From assembly GCA_035546035.1 (NCBI GenBank), contig DASZXC010000008.1, forward strand, positions 71,202 to 121,950: a stretch of 50,749 nt of DNA, read 5' to 3'. Positions 34,288-43,220 of this stretch are shown here, piece by piece. Source of the stretch: Minisyncoccota bacterium. GTDB lineage: Bacteria; Patescibacteriota; Minisyncoccia; Phycocordibacterales; UBA6065. The translations under genes and the position numbers were made by a program. Positions within the stretch are counted from its first letter, which is position 1; each line of letters starts with the position of its first letter. The notes under the pieces were generated by a model. The model searched no databases, had not been told where the DNA came from, and saw only the letters and a list, made by a program, of their open reading frames with translations.

Positions 34288-35484
34288 CTACTGTATAGTG
34301 CGCACCTGGAGAATGCGGTCGAGCAAGAATTTAAGGCCGTTTTCAGAGGTCGTGACGATAATCGTGTCTTTGTCGGCGAATGCATATGCGAGCACGAGGC
34401 GTCCCGTCGTGTCTTTGAGCGTCCTCACGTCCGTATTCGATATGACGACGTCGTCGAAATTATCGGCGAGCGAATTCGAATTTATTTCCGGATACGTGAT
34501 TCGGATGAGAGGCATCATGTCCTGGCCGAGATCCCTTTCCCAGTCGAGCATGCCGGAAAAGGCGTTCTGGAAGAACGTGTTCTTAAGGATGATGAACGGC
34601 ACCTGCTTGTCGTATGAATAGAGGCCGACCATATACTGGTCTCCGAGCGATCGGAGGAGCCTGCTCGGTATATGCGTCGAATCGAATACGTCCGCGACCG
34701 GTTCCTGCGATGCCGCCGTGGCTGACGTGACCGGGATGAGAGCGAACACGTTCCCGACGCCGGGATTTGCCGCGTTCAGCCTTGCTCCCATAAGCTCGAG
34801 CGGATCATTGTCGCGATCGTTAGGGTCGAGGACAATGATCGAAGCCTGTGAATACGGGACGATCGGGGCATATGAGACGGTCGGTGCGGGTGCGGCAGAT
34901 TTAGCCTTTCCTCCTGTCGAAGAGAACCAGATATACCAGCCGCCCGCTATGAACAATATGAGTATGATGACGATGCCGATGAAGAGCCCTGTCTTCGGGC
35001 GCTTCTCCTGTTCGTATCGTATGGGCTGCGCATCGCGCTTGTTCTGTTCGGCAACGGCTATGCCTATTTTCGACATGCCGCCGTATTTTACCGCCTCTTC
35101 GGCATCGGTCCGGTATGTCCGGATCGGCTTTATAGAAGGATCATTCTGGCCCGGTGCTATCGGCGCGGGGCCTGTGGGCGCGAAAGGGTTTTTTTGAGGA
35201 GCGGTCTCGAAAGAGGATCGATATGCTTCTGCCTTCGGAATCGAAGGCGCCGGAGCGACGGGTGCCTGTGCCGGTTTCGGAGGTTCCTCGTCGATTTGTA
35301 CCGTTCGGCTGACGGGAGCCGGTTCTGTTTCCTCGTCGAGAGCCGGTTCGGCTACAGGGATCTCTTTCGGTATCTCGGGCTTGTCGAATTCGTTGTCGAG
35401 GGCGCGGCTCGTGCCCACGATGTCTATCCCTTCCGCCTGGAGGTCTTCGTTCTTTGATGGGGTATTCGTGTTTTCTGGGTCCAT
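34288..35484 (-). CDS. hypothetical single-pass membrane protein
   Basis: The start MDPENTNTPSK at 35484 has TATAAT 6 nt upstream. Pro-rich cytoplasmic region, TM GLFIGIVIILILFIAGGWYIWF, and a ~190 aa outside domain. The frame stays open upstream to 35853 (see findings). Confidence 0.6.
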   Translation of the reverse strand: MDPENTNTPSKNEDLQAEGIDIVGTSRALDNEFDKPEIPKEIPVAEPALDEETEPAPVSRTVQIDEEPPKPAQAPVAPAPSIPKAEAYRSSFETAPQKNPFAPTGPAPIAPGQNDPSIKPIRTYRTDAEEAVKYGGMSKIGIAVAEQNKRDAQPIRYEQEKRPKTGLFIGIVIILILFIAGGWYIWFSSTGGKAKSAAPAPTVSYAPIVPYSQASIIVLDPNDRDNDPLELMGARLNAANPGVGNVFALIPVTSATAASQEPVADVFDSTHIPSRLLRSLGDQYMVGLYSYDKQVPFIILKNTFFQNAFSGMLDWERDLGQDMMPLIRITYPEINSNSLADNFDDVVISNTDVRTLKDTTGRLVLAYAFADKDTIIVTTSENGLKFLLDRILQVRTIQ

Positions 35485-35867
35485 ATAGATATTATACGTC
35501 AGAAAGGTGTTACCATTATAGGGAATCCGCACTTCAACTCCCAAATTCTCGTTGCCGTGAAATCGTTGAAACCTTCTCCTGTTCTTTCGAACATATCGCT
35601 CGGTCTCTTCGAAGGGGTCCTCGTCGCAGTGCTCCTCTTCTTTGCCAAGACGTCCGTGACGGGTCTCCATGACTGGTTTATTGCCGTCGACGCGGCAGTC
35701 ATCTTTCTTATCGTGGTCATATCTAATAACGTCCACAAGCTCGTCATCTGCGATAGCCCCGTTCCCTCGCGGAACCGCTTCCTCGAGTCGCTCTTCGGGA
35801 TCGCCGCATGCATGGGCTCGACGATCGTCATCCTCACGTTCTTCGATCGCCATATCTGACCATATGC

Positions 35868-36599: not shown

Positions 36600-36866
36600 T
36601 TATTTCTTGAGCTCGAGCTTCTTCGAGATCGCCGCATACCTCTTTGGATGCTTCTTCTGGAGGTATTTGATGTGGGTCTGGCGATCCGCGACCATGGAGA
36701 GGAGTCCCCTGCGGGAATGCCTGTCCTTGTCGTGCTTCTTGAGATGGCGCGCCAATTCCTCGATTTTCGAGGTGAGGAGCGCGATCTGAACTTCAGGAGA
36801 ACCCGTGTCCTTGTCGTGGACGGCCGAGTTTTTGATCACTTTTGTCTTCTTGGTCGTTGAAAGCAT
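36600..36866 (-). CDS. rpsO: 30S ribosomal protein S15
   Basis: Start trimmed to MLSTTKKTKV... Contains ..GSPEVQIALLTSKIEELARHLKKHDKDRHSRRGLL... Confidence 0.92.
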   Translation of the reverse strand: MLSTTKKTKVIKNSAVHDKDTGSPEVQIALLTSKIEELARHLKKHDKDRHSRRGLLSMVADRQTHIKYLQKKHPKRYAAISKKLELKK

Positions 36867-36912
36867 GGTTCTGAAAGGATAGCACATATATATTGAAAAT
36901 GCAAGCTTTTTA

Positions 36913-36942
36913 TTGGCTTTTATCGCCGCGCGGGCCTATAAT
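36913..36942 (+). promoter_or_regulatory. sigma70-like promoter TTGGCT-18-TATAAT in front of the 16S-like element
   Basis: TTGGCT at 36913-36918 and TATAAT at 36937-36942. Confidence 0.45.
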
Positions 36943-36948
36943 GGCCCT

Positions 36949-37299
36949 GGATCTGTTCGATAACACAGGCTGTTTCCATAGACGGGGAGATAAGTCCGAA
37001 AAACACGTAGGTACCCATGAACCCCGGCTGTTCATGGGGCCTGCGGCGTATCAGGTAGTTGGCGCGGGTAACGGCCCACCAAGCCTATGACGCGTAGCTC
37101 GTCTGAGACGACGATGAGCCACTTCCCTAATAAGGCTGGACCCACCTCTTCCATAGGGAAGGCGTGACGGTAGAAATGACCCAGCTGGCTCTACACGGTT
37201 TCGTGGGGCTTAAGGAAACTTCCTCTCGGCGTTCGAATCCGGGAGACTAGACACCTCCCATTTGTAACGATTTGTTTGCCGGTTCGTACGGAACCAAGG
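36949..37299 (+). ncRNA. condensed 16S rRNA 5'-domain-like element (expressed ncRNA or rRNA relic)
   Basis: 37039-37122 reads GCCTGCGGCGTATCAGGTAGTTGGCGCGGGTAACGGCCCACCAAGCCTATGACGCGTAGCTCGTCTGAGACGACGATGAGCCAC, a close match to conserved SSU helices 11-12. Weaker colinear blocks follow. Invariant SSU stretches are missing. There is no credible ORF. Confidence 0.5.
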
Positions 37300-37336
37300 C
37301 CCTGCCATGCGAAAGCGCGGCAGGGTTCTTATTTTT
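37300..37336 (+). terminator. strong intrinsic terminator
   Basis: CCCTGCC-AT-GCG-AAAG-CGC-GGCAGGG followed by TTCTTATTTTT. It is + oriented, and there is no + strand CDS for ~5 kb upstream. Confidence 0.8.
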
Positions 37337-37354
37337 GCTATAATATTGTGCGAC

Positions 37355-38347
37355 ATGGCATCTCTCAAAGAATTAAAGACGCAGTTTCTCGAATACACTG
37401 AAATAGAAAAAGGCCGCAGCCTGCTTACGGTCCGAAATTATGATCGGTATATCAGCAGGTTCCTTATCTTCTTGAAGAAAGACTCCCCTTCCGACATCAC
37501 CGATGCGTCCGTGCGCGAATTCCGTCTGTGGCTCAATCGCCAGTCTACGGGAAACAACAAAAGGACGGGCGATACTTTGAAAAAAAAGACGCAGAACTAT
37601 TATCTGATCGCTCTGCGCGCGTTCCTGAAATATCTGGCGCGGCAGGGCGTGAAATCGCTCGCGCCCGAACGCATCGAATTGGCGAAAGTCAGCGAACGCC
37701 ATATCGAGTTCATGACGAATGAAGAGCTGCATCGCCTGCTCGAGGCGCCGCTGATGACGGGCGAAACAGGGAATAACCTCCGCGCTCAAAAGAATGAGAA
37801 GGCAAAAAAAGCCAATGATATAAAGGTTTTACGAGACAGCGCCATGCTGCAGCTCCTGTTCTCGACCGGTTTGCGCGTGTCCGAGCTCTGTTCCCTCTCG
37901 CGCGATGTAGATCTGTCCGCCGATGAGATATCGATTCGAGGAAAAGGCGATAAGGTCCGCGTCGTCTTTCTTTCCGACAAAGCCAAATCGACGCTCAAAG
38001 CATATTTGGACAAGCGCGACGACATGGATGACGCTCTCTTCGTGAAAGCGGGCGCTGAAAAGCGATCCAAAGGCCGCGGCGATAATGAATCGACCGCGCT
38101 CACGACCCGTTCCGTCGAGCGTATCGTCAAACAATATGCGTCGAAGGCCGGCATCATGACGAAACGCGTGACGCCTCACGTTATCCGCCATTCGTTTGCG
38201 ACCGATCTGTTGTCGAATGGCGCGGATCTGCGATCGGTGCAGGAGTTGCTGGGTCACTCGAATATCGCTACAACTCAAATCTATACGCATGTGACCGACA
38301 AACATCTGCGAAATATCCATAAACAGTTTCACAACAAGAAGAGATGA
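37355..38347 (+). CDS. xerC: Xer-type tyrosine recombinase
   Basis: Start trimmed to MASLKELKTQFLEY (TATAAT at 37339-37344, 10 nt upstream). Catalytic signature GLRVSEL, HVIRHSFAT and LLGHSNIATTQIYTHV. Confidence 0.88.
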   Translation: MASLKELKTQFLEYTEIEKGRSLLTVRNYDRYISRFLIFLKKDSPSDITDASVREFRLWLNRQSTGNNKRTGDTLKKKTQNYYLIALRAFLKYLARQGVKSLAPERIELAKVSERHIEFMTNEELHRLLEAPLMTGETGNNLRAQKNEKAKKANDIKVLRDSAMLQLLFSTGLRVSELCSLSRDVDLSADEISIRGKGDKVRVVFLSDKAKSTLKAYLDKRDDMDDALFVKAGAEKRSKGRGDNESTALTTRSVERIVKQYASKAGIMTKRVTPHVIRHSFATDLLSNGADLRSVQELLGHSNIATTQIYTHVTDKHLRNIHKQFHNKKR

Positions 38348-38415: not shown

Positions 38416-38514
38416 ATTTCGGATGTGTCCCAGTTAAGATGAACACACATCCGTCCATGGTAATACGACCGGTCACTTCAAAAAGTTTCTATATTGAATG
38501 ATATAGTTGAGAGC

Positions 38515-39315
38515 ATGAAAATCATCTCTTGGAACGTGAACGGTATCCGCGCCAATATCAAAAAAGGCGGCTTCGACTGGATGCTCGCGCAGAATGCCGA
38601 TATCTTTTGCTTTCAGGAGACCAAGGCGCATCCGGAACAGCTTCCGCCTGAAGTCGTTATGCCTCACGGCTATGTCTCCTATTTCGACCATTCGAAAGCG
38701 CGCAAGGGCTATAGTGGCGTCGCTGTATATGTAAAGTCGACGATCAAAGTCGAGAAAGCCGAATATGGTTTCGGTATCCCTGAATTGGATCAGGAAGGAC
38801 GTCAGATAACCTTGTTTTTCAAGCCTGATTCGGCAAAAGGCGCCCAGAAATGGGCTTTTATAAACATATATTTCCCTAACGGAGGCGGCGGCCCGGAGCG
38901 ATTAGCCTACAAACTGCGATATTATGGCGCTTTTTTGACGTATATCGAGAAAATCCGTAAAAGCGGCTACTCGATCGTGTTTACTGGAGATGTGAATACG
39001 GCCCACACAGAAATCGATCTGGCGCGGCCGAAAGAGAATGCCGAGAATACCGGCTTTCTCCCTATCGAGCGCGCATGGATAGATAAAGTGATCGCCGCGA
39101 AATACGTCGATACCTTCCGTCACCTGAATCCGGGAAAGACGGGAGCCTATACCTATTGGGATATGAAGACGTTCGCGCGCGAAAGGAATGTCGGATGGCG
39201 CATCGATTATTTTTTCGTGAGCGAAGACATTGTCCCGAAGGTAAAAAAATCGGAGATGCTTTCCGACATCCTCGGATCGGACCACTGCCCTCTCTTTCTT
39301 AATGTGGCTTTGTAA
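38515..39315 (+). CDS. xth: exodeoxyribonuclease III
   Basis: Start trimmed to MKIISWNVNGIRA (TATAGT 7 nt upstream). Contains ..FCFQETK.., ..GDVNTAHTEIDL.. and ..SDHCP. Confidence 0.92.
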   Translation: MKIISWNVNGIRANIKKGGFDWMLAQNADIFCFQETKAHPEQLPPEVVMPHGYVSYFDHSKARKGYSGVAVYVKSTIKVEKAEYGFGIPELDQEGRQITLFFKPDSAKGAQKWAFINIYFPNGGGGPERLAYKLRYYGAFLTYIEKIRKSGYSIVFTGDVNTAHTEIDLARPKENAENTGFLPIERAWIDKVIAAKYVDTFRHLNPGKTGAYTYWDMKTFARERNVGWRIDYFFVSEDIVPKVKKSEMLSDILGSDHCPLFLNVAL

Positions 39316-39705: not shown

Positions 39706-39725
39706 AATGGCCATGTAAGGCCATT
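39706..39725 (-). terminator. terminator hairpin for cca
   Basis: AATGGCC-ATGTAA-GGCCATT. The minus strand reads hairpin then TTTTTTG. It overlaps the cca stop. Confidence 0.55.
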
Positions 39726-41229
39726 ATTTTACTCCGTGTTTGCCGCGTATTTTAGCTATCTCTTCTTCTTCGGCGCGGGCTTTCTTATCCTTTCCTATCG
39801 CCGCGAGCTTAGCCAGTTCGGTTTCAGGAAGCTTAGCGAGTTCGACGGCTTTCTTTTCGAGGAATTCTTTCGTATTCAATTTCGCTTCGTCGAGGACTTC
39901 TTCGAGAAGCGCGTTCAAGATGAGCCCGATCTTCGGGCCCGGTTCGATTCCTGTTATCTCCATCAATCGCTTGCCGTCTATTTTGAGCATGCCGACCGAT
40001 ATCGGATCCCGAAGGGCTTCCTCGATCATGGCTTTATATTTGCGGAGCCTATACGGATTTTCCTTTGGACGACCTGAGCCGATACGATCGCATGTACGGA
40101 CATCCATAAGATCCCAAATATGGTCTTTGCCCACGTTCACGATCATACGCCGAACCGCCGAAAGGCTTATCTGCTCGGTATCCGAGAAAAACATATGCCA
40201 GCGGACGAGTTTCACGACATCGTCTATCATTTTCTTCGAGAAATTGAGGTTTCGGAGGATTTTCTCGGTCATTCGGGCACCCACTACCTCGTGGCCGTAG
40301 AACGTATATTGATTTGTTTCATGTGAAAACCTGCGGGTTGCTGGTTTGCCGATATCATGAAAAAGCGCCGCAAGCCTTATTTCAAGGCTCGATTTCTTAT
40401 CGGCGGCATGCTGTATCGTGTAGAGCAGATGATTCCAGACGTCATAAATATGGATTCCCTTCTGCTCTATGCCGAAGCTCTCTTCAAATTCCTTGGCTAT
40501 GAATGAAAGGATTCCAAGGTCTTTGCAGAGTTCAAGGGCCTTTTTAGGGGCATTCGACATGACGATCCGAACGAATTCATCGCGAATACGCTCTTTAGCT
40601 ATATGGCTTAACAGATTCGAGTGGGTTTTAAGGGCTTCCAGAGTCTCTTTTTCGATTTCGAAATCCAATTCCGCAGCTATCCTGACGGCTCTCATGATAC
40701 GAAGGGCGTCTTCCCTAAAGCGCTCTCCCGGGTTCCCTACGGTCCGTATAAGTCGATTTTTAAGGTCTCTTTGACCATCAAAGAGATCAGTAATGTTTCC
40801 CGTGAAACTCTCCCCCTTCCCCTTTTTGCTGATCTTTAGAGCAAGCGCGTTTATAGTGAAATCCCGCCGCTGAAGATCGTCCTCGAGTTTGTCGCTAAAA
40901 GACACGGCATCGGGACGGCGCTTGTCCGAATATCCGAATTCGAGCCTGAACGGCGTCACTTCGACGACCTCGAGCCGTTTGTCTCTGGTTTCGTCGTTCA
41001 CGACGCCGACGGTGCCGAAATCGTTTTCATAGAATGTATGGGAAAACGCGGAGGTTATCTTTTCCGGAATGGCGTCAGTCGTCACGTCCCAGTCTTTCGG
41101 TTCGCGACCGAGGATAAGATCGCGCACGCAGCCGCCGACCAGAAAGGCCTGAAAGCCCTGTTTTTCAAGGGTTTCTGCGACATGAGAAACTTCGTCCGGT
41201 ATAGTGTAAGTAGCCCCCTTCTCTTTCAT
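39724..41229 (-). CDS. cca: CCA-adding tRNA nucleotidyltransferase with HD domain
   Basis: GGCVRDLILGREPKDWDVTT and the HD motif LAALFHDIGKP. I prefer the start at MKEKGATYTIPDEV (41229), because the longer start (41271) would overlap the tRNA promoter. Confidence 0.88.
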   Translation of the reverse strand: MKEKGATYTIPDEVSHVAETLEKQGFQAFLVGGCVRDLILGREPKDWDVTTDAIPEKITSAFSHTFYENDFGTVGVVNDETRDKRLEVVEVTPFRLEFGYSDKRRPDAVSFSDKLEDDLQRRDFTINALALKISKKGKGESFTGNITDLFDGQRDLKNRLIRTVGNPGERFREDALRIMRAVRIAAELDFEIEKETLEALKTHSNLLSHIAKERIRDEFVRIVMSNAPKKALELCKDLGILSFIAKEFEESFGIEQKGIHIYDVWNHLLYTIQHAADKKSSLEIRLAALFHDIGKPATRRFSHETNQYTFYGHEVVGARMTEKILRNLNFSKKMIDDVVKLVRWHMFFSDTEQISLSAVRRMIVNVGKDHIWDLMDVRTCDRIGSGRPKENPYRLRKYKAMIEEALRDPISVGMLKIDGKRLMEITGIEPGPKIGLILNALLEEVLDEAKLNTKEFLEKKAVELAKLPETELAKLAAIGKDKKARAEEEEIAKIRGKHGVK

Positions 41230-41255
41230 GTTAATGCCCAGTTTACTATATTTTT

Positions 41256-41283
41256 TTGATTTCCGCGCCATTTCACGTATGAT
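41256..41283 (+). promoter_or_regulatory. promoter TTGATT-16-TATGAT for the tRNA-Arg/tRNA-Gly pair
   Basis: The -10 element ends 10 nt before the tRNA-Arg 5' end. Confidence 0.45.
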
Positions 41284-41293
41284 GAACGCATTG

Positions 41294-41365
41294 CTCCCGT
41301 GGTGAAATGGATATCATACCGGTCTTCGGAACCGTTGTTGGGGGTTCGAATCCCTCCGGGAGCAC
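41294..41365 (+). tRNA. tRNA-Arg (anticodon UCG)
   Basis: Hand-folded cloverleaf: acceptor GCTCCCG/CGGGAGC, anticodon loop CTTCGGA, T arm GGGGG-TTCGAAT-CCCTC, discriminator A. CCA is not encoded. Confidence 0.9.
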
Positions 41366-41409
41366 AGGTAGTTTGAAATAGAGAGGTTATAGTGTATATT
41401 GATTCCACT

Positions 41410-41480
41410 GCGGGTATCGTTTAGTGGTAGGACACGTCCTTGCCAAGGATGAGGTGAGAGTTCGATTCTCTCTACCCGCA
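41410..41480 (+). tRNA. tRNA-Gly (anticodon GCC)
   Basis: Acceptor GCGGGTA/TACCCGC, anticodon loop TTGCCAA, T arm GAGAG-TTCGATT-CTCTC. Confidence 0.92.
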
Positions 41481-41487
41481 CCTAGTT

Positions 41488-41522
41488 AACAAAGAGCGCC
41501 TTGTAAGGCGCTCTTTGTTTTG
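41488..41522 (+). terminator. intrinsic terminator after the tRNA pair
   Basis: AACAAAGAGCGCC-TTGTAA-GGCGCTCTTTGTT then TTG. Confidence 0.75.
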
Positions 41523-41824
41523 TCCTTTATACAATTTGAAACAAATCTCTTTCCCGTCTCGTATCAGTGACTTCCCTTAAAGCTCTCAACAAAGGCGTTT
41601 TGTGGAAAAGTGGGGATAACCCTGGGGATTATGTTTAAAAGACACACCTGAAATAGGCCTATAAATCGTTGTCCTTTGTCCTTATAAACGCTCAACAGAG
41701 CCATAAAAGAGAAAATTACCTGATCAGTGCAAAAGCTCATGTTTATGTTTCATAAGAAACATAGTAACTGATGTTTCATGTGAAAATTCATCAAAAATTC
41801 ATGCTCTTTCAGCATGATATTTCC

Positions 41825-42199
41825 ATGAAAGTATTCACATCTGATGCTCAAAAGAAAGGAAAGATCGGCGAAGACGCAGTTTGTACGTATTTAACCAATC
41901 AGGGTTTCTTGATCGTGGAAAAGAATTTCACCCGAGCATGGGGAGAAATAGATATAGTTGCTCGAAAGGGAGGAGTAACGCATTTTATCGAGGTCAAAGC
42001 TGTTACACATGAAAACACAGGCCTTAGACCCGAAGATCAAATGCATAGCCTTAAACAAAAAAAGCTCCGTCGAATGATCGAAACCTATATTACGGGGCGC
42101 AGGATAGGGGACTGGCAGTTCGACGTAGCCTGCGTGTACCTCGATATGCAAGAGAGAAGAGCCAGAATAAAGATGCTTTCGGACATTATTCTGGCCTGA
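41825..42199 (+). CDS. yraN: YraN-family (UPF0102) endonuclease-like protein
   Basis: Start trimmed to MKVFTSDAQKKGKIGEDAV... Contains ..GEIDIVARKGGVTHFIEVKA. The segment is AT-rich. Confidence 0.8.
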   Translation: MKVFTSDAQKKGKIGEDAVCTYLTNQGFLIVEKNFTRAWGEIDIVARKGGVTHFIEVKAVTHENTGLRPEDQMHSLKQKKLRRMIETYITGRRIGDWQFDVACVYLDMQERRARIKMLSDIILA

Positions 42200-42259
42200 T
42201 TTGGGCAAAACCTTAGCCTTTTTTAACGTTTATGCTAGTATGTCTTGGTCTAAAGATAA

Positions 42260-42332
42260 CGGGGCGTGGTGTAACGGCTAACATGCTTGACTTGGGATCA
42301 AGTGACTCTGGGTTCGAATCCCAGCGCCCCGA
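42260..42332 (+). tRNA. tRNA-Pro (anticodon UGG)
   Basis: Acceptor CGGGGCG/CGCCCCG, anticodon stem CTTGA/TCAAG with loop CTTGGGA, T arm CTGGG-TTCGAAT-CCCAG. Confidence 0.9.
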
Positions 42333-42347
42333 CACGAAATAGCTCAC

Positions 42348-42665
42348 GTGGCCAGTTCAAAGCGATTTACGAGGACGATAGAGGACTTTACGTGCGAACA
42401 TTGCGGCGCCGCAGTGATAGGAAACGGCTATACCAATCATTGTCCGAAATGCCTGTGGTCAAAGCACGTAGACAGGAATCCGGGCGATAGGCTTGCTGCA
42501 TGCGGCGGCATGATGGAGTCTGTCCTGGCTGAAAAAGAGAGAAGCGATTACGTGATCACGCATAGATGCGCTGTCTGTGGTTTCGAGCGCAGGAACAAGC
42601 TCCAGAAAGGAGACGATTTCGACGCATTCGTCGCGATCTCTAAAAAGTCTTCGGAAAGAAAGTAG
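42348..42665 (+). CDS. RNHCP-domain zinc-ribbon protein
   Basis: GTG start. Contains FTCEHCG.., ..YTNHCPKCLWSKHVD.. and ..HRCAVCGF. Confidence 0.75.
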   Translation: MASSKRFTRTIEDFTCEHCGAAVIGNGYTNHCPKCLWSKHVDRNPGDRLAACGGMMESVLAEKERSDYVITHRCAVCGFERRNKLQKGDDFDAFVAISKKSSERK

Positions 42666-42967
42666 TCAAGCGGTGTTTCGGTCGGCGAAAATCGTCTGGT
42701 TTGACTTAATTTTTAAAAATGACCGAATATTTTTTGTGGTGAAAGAAAATTTGCCCAGGTTCGAACGTCGGCGGGCCTTTCCCGGCAGGCTTTGAGATAA
42801 AGAAACAAAGATTGATTAATGTCAATCGTCTGGGTGTGCTTTGACAGGGCAGGGGGAAGCGTGACTCTTTTGAAAAAAACGGCAGGGAAGGGCGTATAAA
42901 TATATGTGAAAGGAGGGGACGCCCTTCTTTCGAAAAGGTCTGGTTTTAACAAATACAATTCAAGACT

Positions 42968-43042
42968 ATGATCCGACTCAACGAAGGAGGCAATCCAAAC
43001 AACCCTAACGACAAGAAGAAGCCTCCAATGCCTCAGCAGTAA
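42968..43042 (+). CDS. questionable 24-codon ORF (MIRLNEGGNPNNPNDKKKPPMPQQ) inside a probable sRNA unit
   Basis: No SD upstream. The internal GGAGGC..GCCTCC pairing suggests RNA structure rather than coding. Confidence 0.15.
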   Translation: MIRLNEGGNPNNPNDKKKPPMPQQ

Positions 43043-43053
43043 GGTCTTAAGAG

Positions 43054-43080
43054 CAGCGCCTGCGGGCGCTGTTTTTGTTT
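43054..43080 (+). terminator. intrinsic terminator
   Basis: CAGCGCC-TGCG-GGCGCTG followed by TTTTTGTTT. Confidence 0.7.
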
Positions 43081-43137
43081 GTCACAAAAGCAAATAAATA
43101 GAAAAGCCTGCCGAACTATGCTAGATTGAGTCTCATT

Positions 43138-43208
43138 GCGGGCGTAATTTAGTGGTAGAATGACTGCCTTCCAAGCAGTAAGTCCGGGTTCGATTCCCGG
43201 CGCCCGCA
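43138..43208 (+). tRNA. tRNA-Gly (anticodon UCC)
   Basis: Acceptor GCGGGCG/CGCCCGC, anticodon stem ACTGC/GCAGT with loop CTTCCAA, T arm CCGGG-TTCGATT-CCCGG. Confidence 0.92.
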
Positions 43209-43220
43209 CAACTAAGGCCG

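Follow-up and report, generated by a model that had tools for sequence, protein, structure and literature searches.

The window analysed here, a 50,749-nt stretch of DNA from a Minisyncoccota bacterium (assembly GCA_035546035.1, contig DASZXC010000008.1, positions 71,202 to 121,950 of the forward strand), contains in the 488-nt spacer between rpsO and xer (36867-37354) an element that is homologous to part of the small-subunit (SSU) 16S ribosomal RNA (rRNA), is flanked by putative transcription signals of its own, and may represent a young RNA gene. Pfam matches (Ribosomal_S15 and Phage_integrase) bear out the two neighbours named in a preliminary description of the sequence, the ribosomal protein S15 gene and a tyrosine recombinase gene, and the former is transcribed away from the element (Table 1). 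As stated there, the gap holds no credible open reading frame (ORF); furthermore, no ORF is common to the window and the only other copy of the element, found at the same site in a sister species (locus L004, contig DASZXL010000026, assembly GCA_035545915.1). A small protein gene was rejected as the identity of the insert, since no ORF is kept between both copies.

The homology is carried by the Rfam covariance model (CM) SSU_rRNA_bacteria (RF00177), which in cmscan matches positions 36998-37120 on the + strand with 63.1 bits (E 1.3e-15), above the gathering score of 50 bits, and thus upholds the 16S-like sequence described at 37039-37122, which is indeed present there. The aligned core consists of helices h7, h11 and h12, and the 81 model positions corresponding to h8-h10 are swapped in the window copy for a 7-nt loop that closes a perfect stem. 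For the resulting h7 hairpin the folding energy is -24.2 kcal/mol (z -4.6). When the h11-h12 segment is folded in isolation, its minimum-energy structure gives back the 16S helices. Comparison with natural 16S relied on a set of 79-80 sequences or loci obtained by a pattern scan, none of them from a relative. In blastn against 80 of these loci the element matches in the core only, with 85-90% identity over h11-h12; the window core is 89.9% identical to its nearest natural 16S over these helices, and the L004 core 84.8% identical to its own. Altogether, these results support a true 16S homologue that is incapable of working as an SSU rRNA, as had already been recognised, the match covering model positions 108-309 only.

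Detectable homology ends with this core. The preliminary description had proposed that the whole 5' domain is present in condensed form, some 560 nt of 16S being squeezed collinearly into about 310 nt. This view is not sustained: sensitive Rfam scans give no second SSU match at E<10 in the window or the sister copy, a spliced alignment of the part 3' of the core to E. coli 16S scores no higher than shuffles, and blastn (80 loci) returns the core alone, so that detectable 16S is limited to h7, h11 and h12 (h7-h12 in the sister copy), perhaps with a short 5' motif. Further 16S domains (530 loop, 790 loop, decoding site, 3' end) are missing from the whole unit of about 385 nt, and no other rRNA-like fragments occur in the window. 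Among the additional blocks once read as 16S, the second (GGGGAGATAAGTCCGAAA) was wrongly assigned to h8; it lies upstream of model position 108, h8 itself is deleted, and the block is more like GACGGGUGAGUAA with a 9-nt insertion. The third and fourth blocks are unsupported and not conserved in the sister copy. An exact GATTAGATACC (16S 786-796) occurs in L004, with a chance expectation of about 0.06, and has no counterpart in the window.

Other structured RNAs were considered and discarded. RNase P RNA was suggested by AAGUCCG, GGGGCUUAAGG and GAAAUGA, which recall the P4 helix and conserved regions of that molecule; these motifs are missing in the sister copy and no CM match was obtained at E<10. 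A tmRNA or tRNA-like 3' end (GUUCGAAUCC) was likewise dismissed, as ARAGORN reported just four tRNAs and no tmRNA in the window. The checks against RNase P and tmRNA models were therefore negative, and no other Rfam family matches within 36850-37400 at E<10.

Table 1. Features of the rpsO-xer locus and of the 16S-derived element, in window coordinates.
Feature	Position	Strand	Description
rpsO (ribosomal protein S15)	36600-36866	-	Pfam Ribosomal_S15, E 1.5e-28; left neighbour, transcribed away from the element
rpsO promoter TTGCAT-17-TGnTATCCT	~36876-36904	-	Assigned by reading of the sequence; block also present in relatives without the element
Promoter-like site of the element	36913-36942	+	TTGGCT (36913-36918), 18 nt, TATAAT (36937-36942); promoter scan; predicted start ~36949
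Leader motif GATAACACAGG	36959-36969	+	Within the 5' leader, the sister copy shares only this motif
16S-derived core	36998-37122	+	h7, h11 and h12 of SSU rRNA
h7, 16-bp hairpin	37006-37045	+	Closed by loop CCCGGCU in place of h8-h10
h11	37047-37094	+	Aligned to RF00177
h12	37097-37119	+	Aligned to RF00177
3' region of the putative transcript	37123-37298 (176 nt)	+	No homology or constraint detected
Intrinsic terminator	37299-37336	+	Hairpin 37299-37326, then T-rich run; -21.2 kcal/mol, z -4.2
xer (tyrosine recombinase)	37336-38347, ATG 37355	+	Pfam Phage_integrase and SAM-like N-terminal domain; right neighbour
xer extended -10 TGCTATAAT	37336-37344	+	Own promoter, downstream of the terminator hairpin

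The flanks of the core are conserved to very different degrees. At its 5' side, the promoter scan recovered the -35 and -10 boxes that had been described, and at the equivalent position L004 has CTGGCT-18-TAGAAT with a TG-extended -10, the 18-nt inter-box spacer being unrelated to that of the window. The -35 box of the element sits within ancestral spacer DNA, 8 nt behind the -35 box of rpsO, so that only the -10 box counts as independent evidence for a promoter. In the leader, the motif GATAACACAGG shares 10 of 11 bases with GATAACAAAGG of L004, both copies fitting GATAACA(C/A)AGG. The first of the blocks once read as 16S (TAACACAGGC) is thus conserved in both copies but weakly supported as 16S, its alignment score against the 16S 5' end of E. 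coli being reached by 2 of 60 shuffles; the motif may derive from 16S UAACACAUGC (about nt 45-58). Beyond the core, the 3' region is not 16S-like (Rfam at E<10, blastn against the 80 loci, and spliced alignment of 37123-37300 to E. coli 16S, the last no better than shuffles), shows no significant similarity to the L004 3' region (z 1.4), and has no excess of structure over shuffles (z -1.1). Constrained folds of the 3' half yield just a loosely similar enclosing helix in both copies, and the region may be decayed sequence or spacer. Leader and 3' half align between the window and L004 no better than expected by chance.

The strong + oriented terminator of the preliminary description is confirmed as a hairpin followed by a T-run (Table 1), and no + strand gene lies upstream of it. 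L004 has a different 13-bp hairpin and T-run at the same place (-27.4 kcal/mol, z -6.9); the two hairpin sequences differ, including one compensated G-C to U-A change, and in both copies the xer promoter follows directly on the terminator. The two margins of the spacer, comprising the rpsO promoter block on one side and the xer extended -10 with its short leader on the other, are near-identical in both copies and common to relatives. A minus-strand promoter-like sequence, TTGAGA-17-TATTAT, is also present within the first xer codons (window 37340-37368, L004 3986-4014, both on the - strand); if active, it would drive antisense transcription across the element toward rpsO, and on that strand the terminator hairpin is not followed by a T-run.

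The succession of promoter, structured rRNA-like domain, terminator and gene is also the layout of protein-dependent transcription attenuators, and the terminator abuts xer in both species, 20 nt before the start codon. The element could accordingly be a cis-acting leader of xer: the upstream promoter would drive a long leader RNA, and its 16S-like domain would bind a ribosomal protein or another factor and control read-through of the terminator. We regard this as improbable: xer has its own extended -10 downstream of the hairpin, identical in relatives that lack the element, and the 180-200 nt between core and terminator are not conserved. Moreover, no alternative antiterminator pairing was seen, although no systematic search was made, and no evident logic ties a recombinase to a ligand of the 16S 5' domain. 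As to the promoters themselves, the xer extended -10 TGCTATAAT lies just 10 nt 5' of the ATG, has the same sequence in most close relatives, and forms part of a region in which the 21 nt 5' of the ATG are identical across relatives with or without the element, a disposition that suggests a leaderless or nearly leaderless xer mRNA; the rpsO transcript seemingly starts a few nt past its own -10.

The distribution of the element was assessed on loci gathered via the recombinase, 80 from species-representative genomes and 5 from other assemblies (L001-L085). The named proteins nearest to the window recombinase are labelled Paceibacterota or Taylorbacteria. In about 70 of these 85 related Paceibacterota loci rpsO and xer are divergent neighbours, usually separated by 50-135 nt, as in six relatives at 80-82% Xer identity. 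Overall, spacers of 51 to about 3700 nt occur; the large ones hold unrelated inserts, several with ORFs of 100-390 aa, and the promoter-proximal edges are the only shared parts. Judged from these comparisons, the rpsO-xer spacer is an insertion hot spot. Searches of the 85 loci with nhmmer, blastn and Rfam found the 16S-like insert only in the window and L004, whose recombinase and S15 are 86% and 93% identical to those of the window. The L004 insert occupies the same site in the same orientation and matches RF00177 with 84.1 bits over model positions 106-311, with h8-h10 kept. The window organism and L004 are mutual closest relatives, both 79-84% identical to element-less genomes, and a single gain of the insert in their common ancestor would be the parsimonious account. 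Metagenome and viral collections gave no match to a pattern based on the derived h12 sequence that both copies have in common.

The L004 copy is identical in five independent assemblies, with no signal of polymorphism, so the element is no assembly chimera. Two Logan assemblies of the L004 species end at this locus: one (L210) begins inside the element, 308 nt before xer, and the other (L209) starts 618 nt before xer, at the end of the spacer nearest to rpsO and about 32 nt upstream of the element. Assembly may tend to break off at the rRNA-like sequence or close to it.

Between the window and L004, 4-fold degenerate sites in six flanking genes are 55% identical, and h11-h12 are 72% identical. 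Core pairs were taken from the CM alignments, giving 40 pairs and 80 paired positions in the two sequences compared. The cores differ at 33 of these 80 positions, and the number of canonical pairs is 36 of 40 in the window and 34 of 40 in L004. Thirteen pairs have changed on both sides and still pair, four have changed on one side by way of G-U, and just two are newly broken, both in the inner stem of L004 h12. A random-substitution null retains a mean of 18.7 canonical pairs and reached the observed number in none of 100,000 trials (P<1e-5), a result that survives omission of the doubtfully aligned inner stem of h7 (33 pairs, 8 double changes). The G-U pairs of the core exist as valid pairs on the + strand only, which identifies this as the functional strand. 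The core thus shows structure-preserving change and not random decay, the outcome that the preliminary description had set as a test of its expressed rRNA-derived RNA, and the comparison of spacers among relatives envisaged there has found the element and its signals kept in the sister species.

The position of the changes relative to natural 16S points to 16S-like constraint. In the window, the h11-h12 changes that are unnatural for 16S comprise two exact G-C to C-G pair flips, each present in at most 1 of 79 natural sequences, and one G-to-C change shared with L004 (GAGAGG to GAGACG), seen in none of the 79; none of the changes falls at an unpaired position. By a hand estimate, the copies differ at about 50% of the positions that are variable in natural 16S and at about 17% of the invariant ones, a pattern expected if 16S-like constraints still act.

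These data bear directly on the possibility that the element is a decaying, functionless 16S fragment, inserted once and eroded by substitutions and deletions, the transcription signals being leftovers or serving to shield xer from stray transcription. Such a relic would account for the confinement to two species among about 85 related loci, for bit scores that are low for a real rRNA segment, and for the large indels between the copies (h8-h10 present or absent; 420 vs 520 nt). It would equally account for flanks that have diverged to randomness and are not unusually structured, and for the broken h12 pairs and mutated universal loop of L004, and it agrees with the spacer being an insertion hot spot, where unrelated inserts are found in other relatives. 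We hold it to be the main rival and a serious possibility, if not a probable one, because neutral decay predicts about 19 of 40 canonical pairs against the 36 and 34 observed (P<1e-5), and window h11-h12 has no unnatural change at unpaired positions. Furthermore, 400-500 nt have been retained in both streamlined genomes while synonymous sites became nearly saturated, and two different strong terminators have been maintained. Template-switch mutation can yield compensated hairpins without selection (PMC8794818); this route misfits the isolated single-pair flips and the outer stem of h7, whose strands lie about 130 nt apart in L004.

A further possibility is that the covariation was imported, one or both cores having been overwritten by conversion from a resident or foreign 16S, or captured independently. 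For each core, the nearest natural 16S (89.9% and 84.8% identical) is a better match than the other core (72%), and many of the differences match natural 16S polymorphisms, such as the CAGG..AAGCC pair state found in 6 of 79 natural sequences. The site, orientation, truncation points and missing h6 are nevertheless common to both copies, as is the G-to-C change unnatural for 16S, and the two pair flips of the window occur in at most 1 of 79 natural sequences. In addition, sisters with 93% identical S15 should have near-identical resident 16S, so that conversion would make the cores alike. Little probability is therefore left for an imported origin of the pairing pattern.

The retention of the insert in both species, the 16S-like constraints and the dedicated expression signals would also be compatible with a split rRNA, in which the 16S of the clade is fragmented and the ribosomal h7-h12 piece is encoded here. 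This explanation is very improbable: divergence of about 28% between sisters greatly exceeds what a core segment of the ribosome would show, only one of the copies has h8-h10, the universal GGUAA loop is mutated in L004, and all relatives lack the element.

The explanation that we favour, and to which we give an even chance, is that a 16S fragment has given rise to a young RNA gene confined to this lineage, transcribed on its own, constrained in structure and possibly acting as a decoy of the uS17 site. The homology, restricted distribution, conserved signals and structure-preserving divergence underlying it are demonstrated; transcription, a binding partner and a physiological role are what we infer. 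In the ancestor shared by the window organism and the sister species, a stretch of 16S rDNA spanning about nt 45 to nt 315, with h6 already gone, would have inserted into the short spacer that separates the divergent promoters of rpsO and xer. Transcription of the + strand would proceed from the element's own -10 and -35 boxes, with a start at about 36949 and a stop at its own terminator, 37299-37336, so that the predicted transcript would measure about 385 nt for the window copy and about 485 nt for that of the sister. The selected part would be the self-contained h7/h11/h12 sub-domain, where compensatory changes would have preserved the helices as the remainder of the transcript drifted and the window copy cleanly shed h8-h10. 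The insert, 400-500 nt long, has been kept in the streamlined genomes of both lineages, between which synonymous sites are close to saturation.

The mechanism is more tentative. As positions invariant in 16S change about three times less than variable ones, the RNA would most likely still bind a natural partner of the sub-domain in trans, and would act as a decoy or buffer for a free protein or assembly factor. S17 binds h11, and S20 binds h6 and h8-h10 (PMC4604426); as the window copy has kept the S17 site and lost the S20 site, uS17, for which h11 is the primary site, is the prime candidate partner, and a uS17 decoy or buffer the most concrete mechanism that can be proposed. A fuller version, in which a fragment of the organism's own 16S gene became a new trans-acting RNA gene whose selected h7/h11/h12 mini-domain titrates or chaperones a ligand such as uS17, linking ribosome assembly to the divergent partner of the S15 gene, is unlikely, though by no means negligible. 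That the element mimics the 16S of a host organism is scarcely probable.

Several observations weigh against an RNA gene under selection. The pairing statistic rests on two sequences, below what a formal covariation test such as R-scape needs, and the stems diverge at nearly the synonymous rate, a speed unusual in RNAs under selection; the imported covariation considered above would also remove its force. The L004 copy looks more worn than the window copy and carries signs of decay: a U-to-C change (GGCAA) in the universal GGUAA loop of h11, three broken pairs in the inner stem of h12, several mismatches in h8, and, in addition, a change in the AUCAG internal loop. Leader and 3' region, about half of the transcript, are without conservation or excess structure, and the -35 box may be conserved for rpsO and not for the element. 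Finally, the element is missing in all other relatives, so any function would be dispensable or lineage-specific.

Comparison with known systems helps to place the element. With SSU rRNA (RF00177) it shares homology by descent, a CM match above the gathering score, the retained helices h7, h11 and h12, and an identity of up to 90% over h11-h12. It differs in that it spans only about 200 of the 1533 model positions, having no h6 and, in the window, no h8-h10 either, and in lacking the decoding centre, the 530 loop and the anti-Shine-Dalgarno sequence. It also lies outside any rRNA operon, is about 30% diverged between sister species, and does not conserve a universal loop (GGCAA in L004).

The autoregulatory leaders of ribosomal proteins (S15, S6:S18, L1, L10, L20) are likewise structured, resemble rRNA and are thought to titrate free ribosomal protein, and the element adjoins a ribosomal protein gene. 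Those leaders, however, lie in the 5' untranslated region (UTR) of the operon that they regulate, mimic the binding site of the encoded protein and arose by convergence. The element, by contrast, is a separate unit opposite rpsO with its own terminator, and the rpsO promoter lies between the two; the gene downstream of it encodes a recombinase. S15 binds the h20-h22 junction, whereas the element carries h7, h11 and h12, the area of S17 and S20, and it is a true paralogue of 16S, derived by descent. Its position outside a 5' UTR, the lack of mimicry of the S15 site and its origin by descent thus place it outside the class of ribosomal protein leaders.

A functional parallel may be drawn with the CsrB/RsmZ family and 6S RNA, in that the element is proposed to act in trans, imitating a protein's natural nucleic-acid ligand and so buffering the free pool of that protein. 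It has no sequence or structural relation to these RNAs and occurs in two species only. Bacterial rRNA pseudogenes are also partial rRNA copies outside operons, and the flanks of the element and h12 of L004 look degraded; unlike such pseudogenes, the element keeps its pairing through many double substitutions, keeps promoter-like and terminator signals, and persists across a species split in streamlined genomes. Stand-alone RNA genes made of rRNA fragments were not found in the literature as a described class.

Some further features of the neighbourhood were recorded. A 521-aa ORF without Pfam match (34288-35853, - strand) is 60% identical to its L004 counterpart, compared with 84-93% for neighbouring genes, and therefore evolves fast. 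On the other side, 3' of xer, lies an Exo_endo_phos gene (38494-39315, + strand) with counterparts in L003, L008, L081 and L084; among close relatives it exists in two deeply different forms, with about 41-45% identity between forms and more than 80% within them, so that a paralogue or xenologue may have taken its place in some lineages. Four tRNA genes (Arg-TCG, Gly-GCC, Pro-TGG, Gly-TCC) are clustered at 41293-43209 on the + strand, downstream of a gene for the CCA-adding enzyme (39724-41271, - strand).

On the practical level, such elements can break assemblies, and there is a risk of their mis-annotation as partial 16S genes in metagenome-assembled genomes. On the biological level, the ribosomes of the Candidate Phyla Radiation (CPR)/Patescibacteria are known to be unusual, and the element, if expressed and functional, would rank among the few documented instances in which a fragment of rRNA has given rise to a new bacterial RNA gene, here caught early, in two species and with one copy trimmed. 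If this reading is true, it would represent an rRNA mimic acting in trans that has arisen by descent and not by convergence, and would offer a simple natural setting in which to determine what portion of the 16S 5' domain suffices for recognition by its protein partners.

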